Assembly: GCA_902795755.1 (NCBI GenBank)
Contig: CADBMO010000058.1
Location: 1 to 51,577, forward strand
Origin: an uncultured Erysipelotrichaceae bacterium
GTDB taxonomy: Bacteria > Bacillota_I > Bacilli_A > RF39 > UBA660
Length of the DNA: 51,577 bases
Direction: 5' to 3'
Shown here: positions 48,609 through 50,100 of the stretch, in pieces
Layout of the letters: each line of letters begins with the position of its first letter
Position numbering within the stretch: position 1 is the first letter of the stretch
Position numbers and translations under genes: made by a program
The notes under the pieces: generated by a model
What the model was told of the DNA's origin: nothing
Seen by the model: the letters and a program-made list of their open reading frames with translations, nothing else
The model's database searches: none

Positions 48609-49010
48609 TTACTTATTTTGAATTACATATGTTTTATTAATCTGGACACTACTATTTTTAGGTACCCAATCATATTTTATTTGTTTTTCCGAATCAATTG
48701 ATATAATCTTATATCCAACTAATTCATTATTATAATTTTTTAGTTTAGTACCCATTAGATTAGCACTTTTTACGTTATTATTACATTTCATTATCAGTTT
48801 AACCGAAATATCGCTGATTTTATACGTATTAATAGTGCAATCATCTTGTTTTACGAGTGAACCTTTTATCGATGATAACGACGGATTATTAATTCCAATA
48901 CTTAATAGTACCATCATAATAACAACGCACATTGAAACCATCACGATTGATTCTTTTATGATTGTATTATCAGCAAGTTTTGGCCTTCCTACTTTTCTTT
49001 TTTCAGTCAT
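48609..49010 (-). CDS. VGRPKLAD-motif small surface protein (paralog C, 133 aa)
   Basis: Start at the ATG at 49010 (AAAGGTGA RBS), 4 nt after the stop of paralog D. MTEKRKVGRPKLADNTIIKESIVMVSMCVVIMMVLLSIG...SSIKG. One two-Cys module related to the repeats of paralog D. Confidence 0.75.
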   Translation of the reverse strand: MTEKRKVGRPKLADNTIIKESIVMVSMCVVIMMVLLSIGINNPSLSSIKGSLVKQDDCTINTYKISDISVKLIMKCNNNVKSANLMGTKLKNYNNELVGYKIISIDSEKQIKYDWVPKNSSVQINKTYVIQNK

Positions 49011-49014
49011 ACTA

Positions 49015-50100
49015 TCACCTTTTTGTTGTTGTAGTTGGCGTTGTTGTTGTAGTTTTATTAAGTGATTTTTGTACAACACTAGTTTTTGTAATAGAGTTTA
49101 TTTGGTTAGTACCATCAACTTTATAGTCAACTTTAAAATATATAATTCTAGTTACATCACTATCTTCAAATATAACGGTATCAGCCAAATTACTTTTATC
49201 TAATCCTACGTAGCTTCCGTTACCAATTTTATATGCTATATTTGTTACGCTTGAATTTGTACAATTTATTTTGTATTTAGCACTATCTACCGTAACATTT
49301 AATATATTTAATGAACATCCACCATTTACTTTAGTAGTTGTAGAAGTTTGAGGTTTAATTGTTCTAGTACTATATTTAGCAACATTACTATTATTTGCAT
49401 AATAAGCTACTTTAAATGTTATCATTTTGCTTTTTTGTGAATCAGATAATTTTACTGAATCATATGGTTTTTTAGTTAATAATTTTGAATATTTTCCATT
49501 ATCAATCTTGTAATATATATTTTTAATAGTTGCATTACTACACTCTACTTGGTAATCAATTCCAGTATTGGTTTTTGTTAATCTAGAAAAAGAGCATTCT
49601 CCATCAGCATTTTTTACAACTGATACATAAAACTTAGTTGATTTATCACTACCATCTTTTGTAGATACCGTAACAACACTATTTCCTTCTTTTAAGGCAG
49701 TTACTTTACCTGTTTCATCAACAGATAATACTTTTTCGTCAGAACTAGCATAATTTAATTCTTTATTACTAGCATCAACTGGAGATATTCTAACATATAG
49801 TTTTCTTGAAGTTCCAGCTTTTAACGTGATGTTTTTAAAAATAGGTTTGATTTCTGAGATAATAATGTTTTGACCACTAGTTTGTGGATTTATCATAGCA
49901 GTACCTCTTAAATTAATGGTTTTAAAACCAAATAAAGTACCATAACCAAACACAAGTAAAACAGCAACCGCAACAAATGAAAAACCAGCAACTATAAGTG
50001 ATCTTCTTTTTTGCGCTTTATCAGCTAATTTTGGCCTTCCTACTTTACGTTTTACTTCTTCTTCATCGTCAAATCCTAAGTATTCAATTGGATCTTTCAT
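49015..50100 (-). CDS. VGRPKLAD-motif surface protein (paralog D) with Big_2-like Ig domain and two two-Cys repeats
   Basis: Best start is the ATG at 50100 (AGGAG, 8-nt spacer). ...EEEVKRKVGRPKLADKAQKRRSLIVAGFSFVAVAVLLVFG...INLRG. Big_2-like block LKAGTSRKLYVRISPVDASN...TALKEGNSVVTVST. Two CxxxxC..N repeats. C-terminal TTTTTPTTTT. Confidence 0.8.
   Translation of the reverse strand: MKDPIEYLGFDDEEEVKRKVGRPKLADKAQKRRSLIVAGFSFVAVAVLLVFGYGTLFGFKTINLRGTAMINPQTSGQNIIISEIKPIFKNITLKAGTSRKLYVRISPVDASNKELNYASSDEKVLSVDETGKVTALKEGNSVVTVSTKDGSDKSTKFYVSVVKNADGECSFSRLTKTNTGIDYQVECSNATIKNIYYKIDNGKYSKLLTKKPYDSVKLSDSQKSKMITFKVAYYANNSNVAKYSTRTIKPQTSTTTKVNGGCSLNILNVTVDSAKYKINCTNSSVTNIAYKIGNGSYVGLDKSNLADTVIFEDSDVTRIIYFKVDYKVDGTNQINSITKTSVVQKSLNKTTTTTPTTTTKR

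Follow-up and report, generated by a model that had tools for sequence, protein, structure and literature searches.

The window, by which is meant the whole stretch of 51,577 nucleotides analysed here, contains four minus-strand genes encoding proteins with the N-terminal peptide K-x-K-VGRPKLAD, followed after 7 residues by one transmembrane (TM) helix. The degenerate DNA pattern GTNGGNMGNCCNAARYTNGCNGAY gave 4 matches in the window and 0 in 100 dinucleotide-preserving shuffles, the match sites being located at 23325-23348 (gene A), 34406-34429 (gene B), 48969-48992 (gene C) and 50020-50043 (gene D). The four open reading frames with an identical octapeptide, reported in an earlier sequence-only reading of this DNA, were all found on the minus strand, while the gene starts given for them had to be corrected; the starts of C and D used here agree with public gene calls, and that of B with the public gene call P0360.

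Gene A (22437-23390, minus strand, 317 residues) encodes the module and a β-rich ectodomain for which no Pfam hit was obtained. The module occupies residues 1-70 (23181..23390, minus strand) and is composed of WLLKEDEKKNK-VGRPKLAD, the TM helix and G-K-I-L-G70. The orthologues of A start with MKEWLLKDEKxKVGRPKLAD and contain K-[LVI]-x-[GA], and the gene order EzrA-A-unk277-PolC is kept in at least 10 MAGs. In the product of gene B (32507-34459, minus strand, 650 residues, start MKDKTN) the module is followed by an ectodomain that is duplicated, by a stalk rich in Thr and, at the C-terminus, by a TM anchor with a K-rich tail. Its module (residues 1-54; 34298..34459, minus strand) consists of MKDKTNKKRS-VGRPKLAD, the TM helix and I-K-L-K-G54, and the orthologues P0251, P0246 and P0275 have the same architecture as B.

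Gene C (48609-49010, minus strand, 133 residues, start MTEKRK) encodes the module and one small two-Cys β-sandwich domain (residues 58-130). The module (residues 1-50; 48861..49010, minus strand) is composed of MTEKRK-VGRPKLAD, the TM helix and S-I-K-G50. The AlphaFold2 model of C (mean pLDDT 76) showed a helix at residues 11-40 and a pLDDT below 50 for residues 42-54, SIKG included, and Foldseek returned weak CBM31/CBM56 and Ig-like matches (E of at least 3e-3). The homologues of C are P0008, P0020, P0047, P0263 and P0324; the C-family model was built from 6 sequences, and a homologue search with C alone returned just C itself. Gene D (49015-50100, minus strand, 361 residues, start MKDPIEY) encodes the module, three tandem Ig-like domains (Big_2 at residues 83-162, Pfam E=8.8e-12, followed by 168-248 and 261-343) and a Thr-rich tail. 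In its module (residues 1-66; 49903..50100, minus strand) an acidic/basic tail precedes VGRPKLAD, the TM helix and N-L-R-G66. The model of D (mean pLDDT 82.7) contained a helix at residues 28-54 and a pLDDT below 50 for residues 54-74, including NLRG, and Foldseek matched it to generic Big_2, cadherin and S-layer Ig folds only. In both models the K-G motif thus falls in a stretch of low pLDDT linking the TM helix with the domain next to it.

The whole module is about 50-60 residues long and comprises a basic tail with VGRPKLAD, one TM helix and an external N-K-L-K-[G/A]-x-V motif. The unit described before, namely the octapeptide and a TM helix, was correct in that the helix does follow; the homologous unit is larger, of about 55 residues, and includes both the TM helix and the K-G motif. 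As in Sec-type signals, a positively charged n-region, the K-rich tail, which begins at residue 1-10 in all module proteins, precedes a hydrophobic helix that is also seen in the AlphaFold2 models, and the recognisable cargo domains are extracytoplasmic. The helix starts 7 residues past the D of VGRPKLAD, following x-K-L-K-K-E-S; the h-region has 17-22 hydrophobic residues and begins at +14 from the GRP glycine. A serine residue precedes the helix in 116 of 124 module sequences, and the helix is free of Glu.

The second motif, with the consensus N-K-L-K-[G/A]-x-V, is located about 45 residues past the G of GRP. In the 149 proteins matching the search pattern, its G/A position was occupied by G in 124 and by A in 25. 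The putative -1 residue is G or A, that at -3 is L, I or M, and the site lies 10-15 residues beyond the helix. The sequence K[LIM][KQ]G was found after the first TM helix in 7 of 58 module proteins and in none of the 125 other bitopic or secreted-like ORFs of the same DNA. The motif had been noticed in B, C and D, where it is real, with no clear match in A; it is wider than stated and present in A too, the sites in A-family orthologues being EKVFG-A, GKLTG-N and SKLLA-S, so that GKILG-P of window A is the equivalent site.

The VGRPKLAD copies in the window vary at synonymous sites (GTT/GTG/GTA, GGT/GGG/GGA, AGA/AGG, CCA/CCT, AAA/AAG, CTT/TTA, GCA/GCT), as do 55 copies from related loci, and the claim that selection acts on the peptide and that the module is not a DNA repeat is thereby borne out. 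A non-circular measure of conservation was provided by the orthologues of D, which were taken from full-length hits. In 60 aligned orthologues from the 120 best hits of this kind, G21, R22, L25 and A26 were invariant, V20, P23 and D27 were at least 90% conserved, and K24 alternated with R; conservation within the D family was highest in the motif and in that half of the TM helix which contains FGYGTLFGF. The octapeptide was invariant across MAGs in which PolC and EzrA are about 77% identical and the D orthologues about 50-60% identical.

The passengers, in turn, are unrelated, as had been proposed. Profile-profile comparison showed the D family and each of the small families to be alike only over the first 50-59 residues or so (probability 98-99%), the homology ending past the K-G motif; these are two of the three family pairs, and in the third, the C family and the 125-residue family, the alignment extended to about residue 84.

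When 1.84 billion proteins were searched exhaustively with an HMM, a check suggested in the sequence-only reading together with a count of copies per genome, 209 clusters were obtained, 110 of them at E<=1e-10. The module matched at about residues 1-50 in every match listed, the protein lengths ranging from 33 to 1452 residues. Among 185,579 species genomes there were 81 pattern matches, and the confirmed ones all came from a single group of MAGs of gut origin, labelled Bacilli, Mollicutes or Mycoplasmatota, the few other labels being read as mislabelled; at least 4-5 copies were counted per MAG. The non-relatives, 33 of the 81, were sporadic occurrences of the octapeptide elsewhere, which we suspect to lie in helix-turn-helix arms. 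In IMG/VR 6 matches to the pattern KVGRPKLA were found; none was a relative, and the search thus gave no evidence of phages using the signal. No model in Pfam or NCBIfam matched the module even at E<=1, and the literal strings GRPKLAD and VGRPKL had no match in the literature, in agreement with the view that it belongs to no curated family.

The recognisable passenger domains are all of extracytoplasmic types (internalin-like LRR, M23, NlpC/P60, choline-binding, Big_2, fn3, dockerin). In 81 full-length members Pfam identified LRR_4 (14), HL_N-beta (7), choline-binding (5), Peptidase_M23 (5) and C39_2 (4) domains, and further Big_2, fn3, Flg_new, dockerin, GDSL, SASA and NlpC/P60 domains; NCBIfam added internalin-like LRR matches. 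Most of the cargo consists of large adhesins and hydrolases spread over the chromosome, while many members are only about 110-130 residues long. A C-terminal TM helix with a K-rich tail was present in 37 of the 77 members of at least 250 residues, and none of these 77 has an LPXTG-like sequence within its final 60 residues. The C-terminal arrangement is the type I architecture expected once the signal is removed.

A natural counterpart is found in the same window. The M23 peptidase gene at 8196..10802 (minus strand; Pfam Peptidase_M23) encodes a homologue of module proteins in which a 6-residue tail, MGYFKR, is followed by the TM helix and FNQLLGA, so that the L-x-G segment is kept and VGRPKLAD is absent. 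The protein aligns with the module proteins P0357 and P0312 from the TM helix onward (35% identity over 442 columns with P0357 by BLASTP). The N-terminal position of the module throughout, the extracytoplasmic nature of the recognisable cargo and this homologue without the motif all support the proposal of a portable N-terminal signal on surface proteins. Ordinary Sec-type and class III prepilin signals also occur in the window, the sole Pfam N_methyl match being an 894-residue prepilin at 18849-21533, and none in the module proteins. This coexistence indicates that the module forms a distinct third class, carried by 4 of the roughly 11 proteins that are bitopic or exported.

Genes C and D belong to a Tad locus. 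Directly upstream of D lies a gene for a TadC-like platform protein (T2SSF, 50233..50937, minus strand, Pfam E=4e-13), preceded by that of a TadB-like platform protein (T2SSF, 50937..51575, minus strand, Pfam E=7.4e-13), which is cut by the window end; in related contigs TadA (T2SSE) and a TadZ-like ParA/MinD protein are found upstream of TadB (L001). The conserved operon order is two TadE-like genes, TadZ, TadA, TadB, TadC, gene D and a small module protein, with D directly behind TadC, and both module proteins fixed there, in at least 15 MAGs. C and D are cargo that are fixed components of the Tad operon of this clade, which is narrow, so that co-occurrence of the module with Tad, or with anything else, is inseparable from shared ancestry. 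It had been stated that C and D occupy the place of TadE/F/G without the corresponding processing site. The site is indeed lacking, but C and D are no substitutes for these proteins: two canonical TadE-like genes (KKG/QALVEF...) were present upstream of tadZ in 13 of 13 related loci with enough upstream sequence, and a regex scan found the TadE-type G/xxxVEF N-terminus in these separate genes only. The possibility that C and D are pseudopilins was rejected on these grounds and because their models show Ig-like β-sandwiches on a flexible linker.

The module has the appearance of a specialised signal for secretion or sorting that has not been described before. That it directs export or sorting is highly likely. 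In its more specific form, as a clade-specific extended Sec-type export signal that has its sorting motif in the cytoplasm and probably a processing site as well, the reading is a probable one on the sequence evidence; the chances that the putative site is cleaved are about even, and a dedicated factor for the module may equally well exist or not. The K-rich tail and the helix of 17-22 residues insert the precursor N-in, with the passenger outside the cell, as topology rules and the cargo, which is exclusively extracytoplasmic, show. The invariant K-x-K-V-G-R-P-K-L-A-D is placed some 2 nm off the membrane and forms the N-cap region of a helix continuing into the TM segment; it could serve there as a linear peptide on which a conserved factor, cytoplasmic or peripheral to the membrane, docks. 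Such a factor would direct the precursors of this subset to a given site or translocon, in the way that YSIRK/G-S directs staphylococcal precursors to the septum. Beyond the membrane, the flexible linker 10-15 residues past the helix would be processed within N-K-L-K-[G/A]-x-V, after the G/A residue, by a signal-peptidase-like enzyme recognising a small residue at -1 and an aliphatic one at -3; the mature protein so released would be retained through its own C-terminal TM anchor, choline-binding repeats or partner proteins.

Some features of the sequences speak against cleavage. The c-region of SPase I substrates has small residues at -1 and -3, located 3-7 residues after the h-region, and Pro at +1 is not tolerated; the gap of 10-15 residues between helix and putative site exceeds the typical length, L at -3 is atypical, and window A has Pro at +1 (GKILG-P). 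The module could instead be an uncleaved type II signal-anchor in which VGRPKLAD tethers the protein to a cytoplasmic hub (TadZ/TadA, the divisome or a cytoskeletal adaptor), the K-G motif being a structural or partner-binding element and no cleavage site. This explanation is considered less likely, though it has support in the D family, where the TM helix is extremely conserved (mean top-residue frequency 0.93 for FGYGTLFGFK); a signal peptide that is discarded would not usually be so conserved, which speaks for retention, at least in D, where the TM helix may remain membrane-embedded and touch TadB/TadC. The constant genomic settings point the same way, namely the fixed place of D and the small module protein in the Tad operon, the position of A, which always follows ezrA, and one B-type gene (related locus L045) within the dcw cluster, with ftsW and murG on either side. 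Against it, an N-terminal anchor would be redundant in the long members with a C-terminal TM helix and in others with choline-binding or dockerin domains, and the M23 homologue does without the motif. Moreover, the TM helix of the 125-residue family is poorly conserved (0.41-0.65), as for disposable signals, and a position restricted to G or A next to a variable -2 residue is typical of peptidase sites.

It is tempting to speculate that VGRPKLAD and N-K-L-K-G form the bipartite label of a dedicated export and maturation pathway, with the Tad machine as a possible reader. In such a pathway the precursors would be picked out by a reader in the cytoplasm and matured by a dedicated protease acting outside the membrane or within it; TadZ/TadA/TadB/TadC, a machine with two module proteins in its operon in every case, might act as that reader. 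If this unlikely proposal were true, a Tad-like system would have been repurposed, beyond its role as a pilus motor, for the surface display or assembly of type II-inserted cargo. As for a cognate enzyme, a CPBP intramembrane protease is encoded upstream of the Tad operon in just 5 of 13 loci. A Lon-like gene adjoining the family of 106-124 residues seems, judged by sequence, to be a ClpB-type AAA+ gene and ordinary housekeeping context. The PCAT (39456-41462) was rejected as the processing enzyme, its C39 domain being cytoplasmic and genuine AG-leader peptides of its own being encoded beside it, at 39142-39459; double-glycine leaders (LSxxELxxIxG[GAS]) are cytoplasmic and have no TM helix, and the module differs from them in having K at -2 and its site beyond the TM helix. 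A tblastn search with approximate SipS and SipW baits of about 0.8 Mb of DNA from many genomes, a small part of each, gave no match, and the analysis yielded no candidate for a cognate factor or an additional signal peptidase.

A non-canonical class III prepilin-type signal, by which Tad or prepilin peptidase substrates would be cleaved at the cytoplasmic face of the membrane, perhaps behind the conserved Ser preceding the helix, and assembled into or onto a fibre, is improbable. The place of C and D after tadB-tadC, a basic leader of 20-25 residues with one hydrophobic helix, as in Flp and type IVb leaders, the small residue kept at the helix boundary, the common pilin-size members and the failure to find a gene of Flp size in the Tad loci all recall this class. 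However, the module has neither G(-1)/E(+5) nor G/XXXXEY, the G of VGRP being 13 charged residues from the helix; true prepilins are separate genes, both the single N_methyl match of the window and the TadE-like genes of the operon, and the models of C and D show no α-β pilin fold. Most of the cargo, moreover, consists of large adhesins and hydrolases encoded at scattered chromosomal sites.

A generic signal-anchor cassette without dedicated function, spread by recombination and conserved in appearance only because it is recent, would fit the narrow distribution and the homology over the entire unit of about 55 residues rather than over a short motif. It is nevertheless very improbable: the 8-residue core is invariant while its flanks, the TM helix and synonymous sites have freely diverged, and it is so in genomes as distant as the PolC, EzrA and D comparisons indicate, which implies strong purifying selection on the peptide. 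Finally, the alternative raised at the outset, an AT-hook-like tether whose GRP tail would enter the minor groove and couple membrane proteins to the nucleoid, is disfavoured as the most improbable of all in spite of the K/R residues flanking GRP, the AT-rich genome (25.7% GC) and the sporadic octapeptides in 33 non-relative genome and 6 viral matches, since V-G-R-P has an invariant Val where AT-hooks (PF02178) need Arg (R-G-R-P), DNA binding does not account for the invariant L-A-D with its acidic residue, Pfam AT_hook matched 1 of 42 members (E=0.13), and the motif was seen in module family matches only ahead of a TM helix on exported proteins and not in the orthologous M23 protein.

To our knowledge, only a few motif-bearing signal classes exist in Gram-positive bacteria (YSIRK/G-S, KxYKxGKxW, SipW-cognate and Tat). 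Through each of these a separate route of targeting or maturation came to light, and the present module would point to a new secretion-sorting mechanism if a dedicated reader or protease exists. The motif marks about 200 protein clusters in abundant uncultured gut Bacilli from human, mouse and rabbit samples, including adhesin-like, cell-wall-hydrolase and Tad-associated proteins. An HMM of the module would flag the surface proteome of the clade, which is now mostly unnamed or 'hypothetical', and would provide a defined set of candidate host-interaction proteins in these organisms, as well as a testable bipartite signal composed of the cytoplasmic octapeptide and the external K-G site.

Among the known systems, YSIRK/G-S (PF04650) resembles the module in having a short conserved motif at the n-region/h-boundary of otherwise Sec-type signals, in its restriction to a Firmicutes sub-lineage, and in marking only some of the surface adhesins and enzymes, which are unrelated to one another, alongside ordinary signal peptides. 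The cargo of YSIRK/G-S consists mostly of LPXTG sortase substrates, whereas that of the module frequently has C-terminal TM anchors (37/77) and no LPXTG (0/77). The sequences are unrelated: [YF]SIRKxxxGxxS is absent from the module, and no YSIRK Pfam match was obtained in the 4 window proteins, the 81 full-length members or 42 N-termini. The module motif is also further from the helix, within a tail of 20-25 residues, and a second motif follows on the outer side of the membrane. YSIRK signal peptides bring about secretion at the septum (PMC5962339), while routing and cleavage of the module are putative.

The ESPR (PF13018) is an N-terminal extension of about 25 residues in proteobacterial autotransporters and TPS proteins, and is comparable as a conserved extension ahead of a normal signal on large surface proteins; it differs in being Gram-negative, unrelated in sequence and without a conserved post-helix motif, and the module had no Pfam hit. 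The INLLP peptide of PilN binds PilM, and the N-terminal minidomains of PBPs bind GpsB. These bitopic proteins, whose short conserved cytoplasmic N-terminal peptide docks a partner, resemble the signal-anchor explanation, also in the proximity to a type IV-like machine; however, the motifs differ, and each occurs on one protein family while the module occurs on 200 unrelated cargo clusters.

The KxYKxGKxW signal (TIGR03715, Lactobacillales) is similarly long, with a conserved basic motif in the n-region of large surface proteins. Motif sequence and taxon are different, the module had no NCBIfam hit, and accessory Sec genes were not seen in the DNA examined. A further likeness is the association with glycosylation machinery, represented here by Thr-rich tails and, next to C and D, by a gene for a YfhO/PgfM-like membrane glycosyltransferase (45973..48603, minus strand, downstream of C; Pfam YfhO E=3e-149). 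The protein matched NCBIfam PgfM2 with 274 bits, below the curated cutoff, its synteny is conserved, and it is a possible O-glycosylase for the Thr-rich tails.

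A six-frame scan of the window found VGRPKLAD four times, always on the minus strand, close to an ORF start and ahead of a hydrophobic stretch. The back-translated pattern GTNGGNMGNCCNAARYTNGCNGAY matched at 23325-23348, 34406-34429, 48969-48992 and 50020-50043, and not once in 100 dinucleotide-preserving shuffles; the octapeptide noticed on four ORFs in the sequence-only reading is therefore real. The carriers, with limits set by public gene calls and all on the minus strand, are genes A (22437-23390), B (32507-34459, 650 aa), C (48609-49010, 133 aa) and D (49015-50100, 361 aa). 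The codons vary synonymously among these four copies and likewise among 55 copies from related loci, and thus the constraint acts on the peptide and not on the DNA, as had been proposed.

The four N-termini, combined in a profile, drew 190 proteins out of 5.8e9 sequences in a word-indexed search. An exhaustive HMMER search of 1.84e9 representatives with a 46-position profile yielded 209 clusters at E ≤ 1e-3, of which 110 reached E ≤ 1e-10. The module match spans residues ~1-50 in every match listed, in proteins of 33-1452 aa. Position-specific counts anchored on GRP gave the consensus M-x-K-K-E-E-K-x-K-V-G-R-P-K-L-A-D-x-K-L-K-K-E-S, followed by ~17 hydrophobic residues and a Gly, the invariance being partly circular because the sequences were chosen via the motif. 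A non-circular set was obtained by gathering D orthologues with full-length D (261 matches, 60 of them aligned): G21, R22, L25 and A26 were invariant, V20, P23 and D27 at least 90% conserved, and K24 exchanged with R, in proteins whose ectodomains are only ~50-60% identical. The VGRPKLAD peptide is under strong purifying selection.

The conserved architecture is bipartite, a second motif, N-K-L-K-[G/A]-x-V, lying in a flexible external linker ~45 residues past the GRP glycine. Of 58 module proteins, 7 have K[LIM][KQ]G after the first TM helix; none of the 125 remaining ORFs in the same DNA that are bitopic or secreted-like has it there. By profile-profile comparison, the homology of the D family to the C family (gene C and its homologues) and to a family of 125-aa four-Cys proteins covers only the first ~50-59 residues, and the stretch shared with each small family stops just past K-G (probability 98-99%); the alignment between the C and 125-aa families reaches ~residue 84, partly inside the ectodomain. 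These boundaries define a portable unit of ~55 residues, comprising tail, helix and juxtamembrane motif. The window M23 peptidase (8196-10802, minus strand) aligns with two module-bearing homologues from other MAGs, P0357 and P0312, from the TM helix onward (35% identity, 442 columns). Its cytoplasmic tail is the six-residue MGYFKR where the homologues have VGRPKLAD, and it keeps the helix and FNQLLGA. It is a natural module-minus variant, and the octapeptide is therefore an add-on to an ordinary signal or anchor, swappable among homologues.

Neither Pfam nor NCBIfam gave a match for the module on the four window proteins, and at E ≤ 1 the 42 isolated N-termini returned nothing consistent, only TM noise; literal motif strings found nothing in the literature. 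The motif thus lies outside the curated families of both databases; the sequence-only reading could not place it either. It marks an N-terminal signal module that is restricted to one clade, had not been described before and belongs among the motif-bearing Gram-positive signal peptides. A scan for K[NRA]KVGRPKL in one genome per species (185,579 species) gave only 81 stretches, with 48 confirmed relatives in 47 loci, and none of the phage contigs scanned encodes one. The confirmed loci all belong to gut MAGs, which stem from rabbit, Hadza, mouse and human projects and from rumen-type ones. Their usual title is uncultured Bacilli, Mollicutes or Mycoplasmatota bacterium, a kind of label that often matches an order of GTDB such as RFN20; a few bear the name Clostridium, Muribaculaceae or Paratractidigestivibacter, which is read as a mislabel. 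The module is confined to one clade, and several MAGs carry 4-5 loci each even with this narrow pattern.

The window (25.7% GC, nearly all genes on one strand) is ordinary chromosome of a spore-forming low-GC Firmicute, encoding Lon, trigger factor, GreA, PolC, EzrA, S4, Era, RecO, RuvX, YbeY, two DAG kinases, YqfD, GerM, SpoIIIAH, a SpoVID-N/LysM protein, a Peptidase_C39 ABC transporter (PCAT) and YfhO. Two T2SSF genes (TadB/TadC-like) lie at its far end, and identical contigs extend upstream of them with a T2SSE ATPase and then a ParA/MinD-like TadZ. Ordinary Sec-type N-termini are present on the M23 peptidase, unk277 (encoded next to gene A), GerM and SpoIIIAH, and class III signals on proteins of 894 aa (18849-21533, MKKG/FTLVELLVV) and 390 aa (219-1391, NNKG/FAVSAV). 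Since the module coexists with both, the VGRPKLAD N-terminus, carried by 4 of ~11 bitopic or exported window proteins, is a distinct third class. The N-terminus of the 894-aa protein (minus strand), MKKG/FTLVELLVVIALIAG, is that of a perfect type IV prepilin, and the gene sits between unk277 and polC, a spot empty in the related MAGs examined; the 390-aa protein (minus strand) begins in a pseudopilin-like manner, NNKG/FAVSAVLYSLLLV. The DAGK_prokar genes form a tandem pair (35577-36346, minus strand) between ybeY and ruvX, an order kept in related MAGs.

The cargo is exclusively extracytoplasmic. Pfam applied to 81 full-length members found only such domain types: LRR_4 (14), LRR_8 (10), the hyaluronate-lyase N-terminal β-domain (7), choline-binding repeats (5), Peptidase_M23 (5), Peptidase_C39_2 (4), and also Big_2, fn3, Flg_new, dockerin, GDSL, SASA, H-lectin and NlpC/P60; NCBIfam found internalin-like LRR regions. 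Of the 77 members that reach 250 aa or more, 37 have a C-terminal TM helix with a K-rich tail, often ...IGYIxYKKNK, and none has LPXTG; NCBIfam C-terminal sorting models matched no module-protein C-terminus. The tail ...(L/I)IIGYI(I/V)YKKNKK, recurrent in P0253, P0283, P0292, P0316, P0334, P0348 and others, is possibly a second motif specific to the clade, one that anchors from the C-terminus.

The AlphaFold2 model of D (60 orthologues, mean pLDDT 82.7) has a helix at 28-54, starting just past V-G-R-P-K-L-A, and three Ig-like domains, residues 54-74, including N-L-R-G, having pLDDT <50; Foldseek gave only Big_2, cadherin and S-layer-type matches. In that of C (6 sequences, mean pLDDT 76), residues 11-40 form a helix and residues 42-54, including S-I-K-G, a linker with pLDDT <50; a single small β-sandwich follows, whose matches were weak and CBM31/56-like. 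Neither predicted structure resembles a pilin.

Two cargo genes are fixed in the Tad operon. The D family (~350 aa, Big_2) always directly follows TadZ-TadA-TadB-TadC (at least 15 MAGs), and is always followed by one or two small module proteins of the C or 125-aa family, after which come a DUF421-like gene, YfhO, two acidic coiled-coil proteins, SpoIIIAH, GerM and PCAT. Two canonical TadE-like genes (N-termini KKG/QALVEFVIILP and NNKG/QSLAIF) lie upstream of tadZ in 13 of 13 loci with enough sequence; therefore C and D, first noted for lying in the usual TadE/F/G position, do not replace TadE/F, and their models agree with this. This pair, of 113-127 aa, opens the clade's Tad operon (L016 4255-4996 and 12 other loci); no Flp-sized pilin gene was found near it in those 13 loci, and the role of major subunit may fall to the KKG/QALVEF protein itself. 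The A family (~310 aa, MKEWLLKDEKxKVGRPKLAD) is always arranged EzrA-A-unk277-PolC (at least 10 MAGs). Adhesin-like B-type genes (600-1470 aa) are scattered, one adjoining a cluster of prepilin peptidase and pseudopilin genes (L024); the PELIKDSW...QGNV family (106-124 aa) lies downstream of a gene read as clpB-like, and further module families of various sizes exist. A B-type protein of 678 aa is encoded inside a dcw cluster, between ftsW and murG-murB-divIB-ftsA-ftsZ (L045 8412-17170); this insertion and the constant place of A beside ezrA hint at a cell-division link, or are coincidence.

The N-terminal position, with N-in topology signals, the extracytoplasmic cargo and the peptide-level selection all agree with the portable sorting signal first suggested, and the module is very probably an export or sorting signal. 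By analogy with YSIRK signals, whose septal secretion serves as a model (PMC5962339), a factor in the cytoplasm or at the membrane periphery would recognise the octapeptide and sort the module precursors; the chances that a dedicated reader exists are about even. L-K-[G/A]/x-V would be the processing site, and the case for cleavage is evenly balanced. In its favour are the G/A-only position with variable -2 and aliphatic -3, the location within a disordered linker, the C-terminal anchors on half of the long cargo and wall-binding repeats on other cargo, and the poorly conserved TM of the 125-aa family. Against it are the distance of 10-15 residues beyond the helix, the atypical L at -3, Pro at +1 in the window's A, and the very highly conserved TM of the D family; D at least may stay anchored and contact the Tad platform. 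An uncleaved anchor with a docking peptide, differing mainly in that the helix is retained and not removed, is a serious rival, though rather unlikely. A class III signal is highly improbable, the module lacking the defining features of that class, and a functionless cassette slightly more so, as the core is invariant while flanks and synonymous sites have diverged. The AT-hook alternative, a tail tethering AT-rich DNA, is the least credible: there is no R-G-R-P core, Pfam AT_hook matched 1 of 42 isolated N-termini at E=0.13, and L-A-D and the cargo are left without account. The module is of immediate use for annotation and for outlining which surface proteins an uncultured gut lineage makes; what it is worth for mechanism hinges on identifying reader and protease.

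A YfhO/PgfM-like glycosyltransferase (45973-48603, minus strand) always follows the Tad/D/C block. The C-terminus of D (49015-49060) is NKTTTTTPTTTTKR and the B stalk (~32650-32800) is TTTTTTTKK; with these Thr-rich segments and this neighbour O-glycosylated cargo is possible, and D and B may be modified like streptococcal Pgf substrates. Two large, very acidic coiled-coil-like proteins of 338 and 442 aa (43535-45866, minus strand), without TM or Pfam match, hold a conserved place between YfhO and SpoIIIAH, found in every related locus. The PCAT gene (39456-41462) is syntenic across many related MAGs, and directly downstream two small ORFs (39142-39459, minus strand) carry double-glycine-type (A-G) leaders, MKELNKNEQKIVKAG/ASGGWIAAGIAAG... 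in the 46-aa and MILSKKDLKKIKAG/KTLSATLL... in the 55-aa product; both products are probably bacteriocin-like PCAT substrates.
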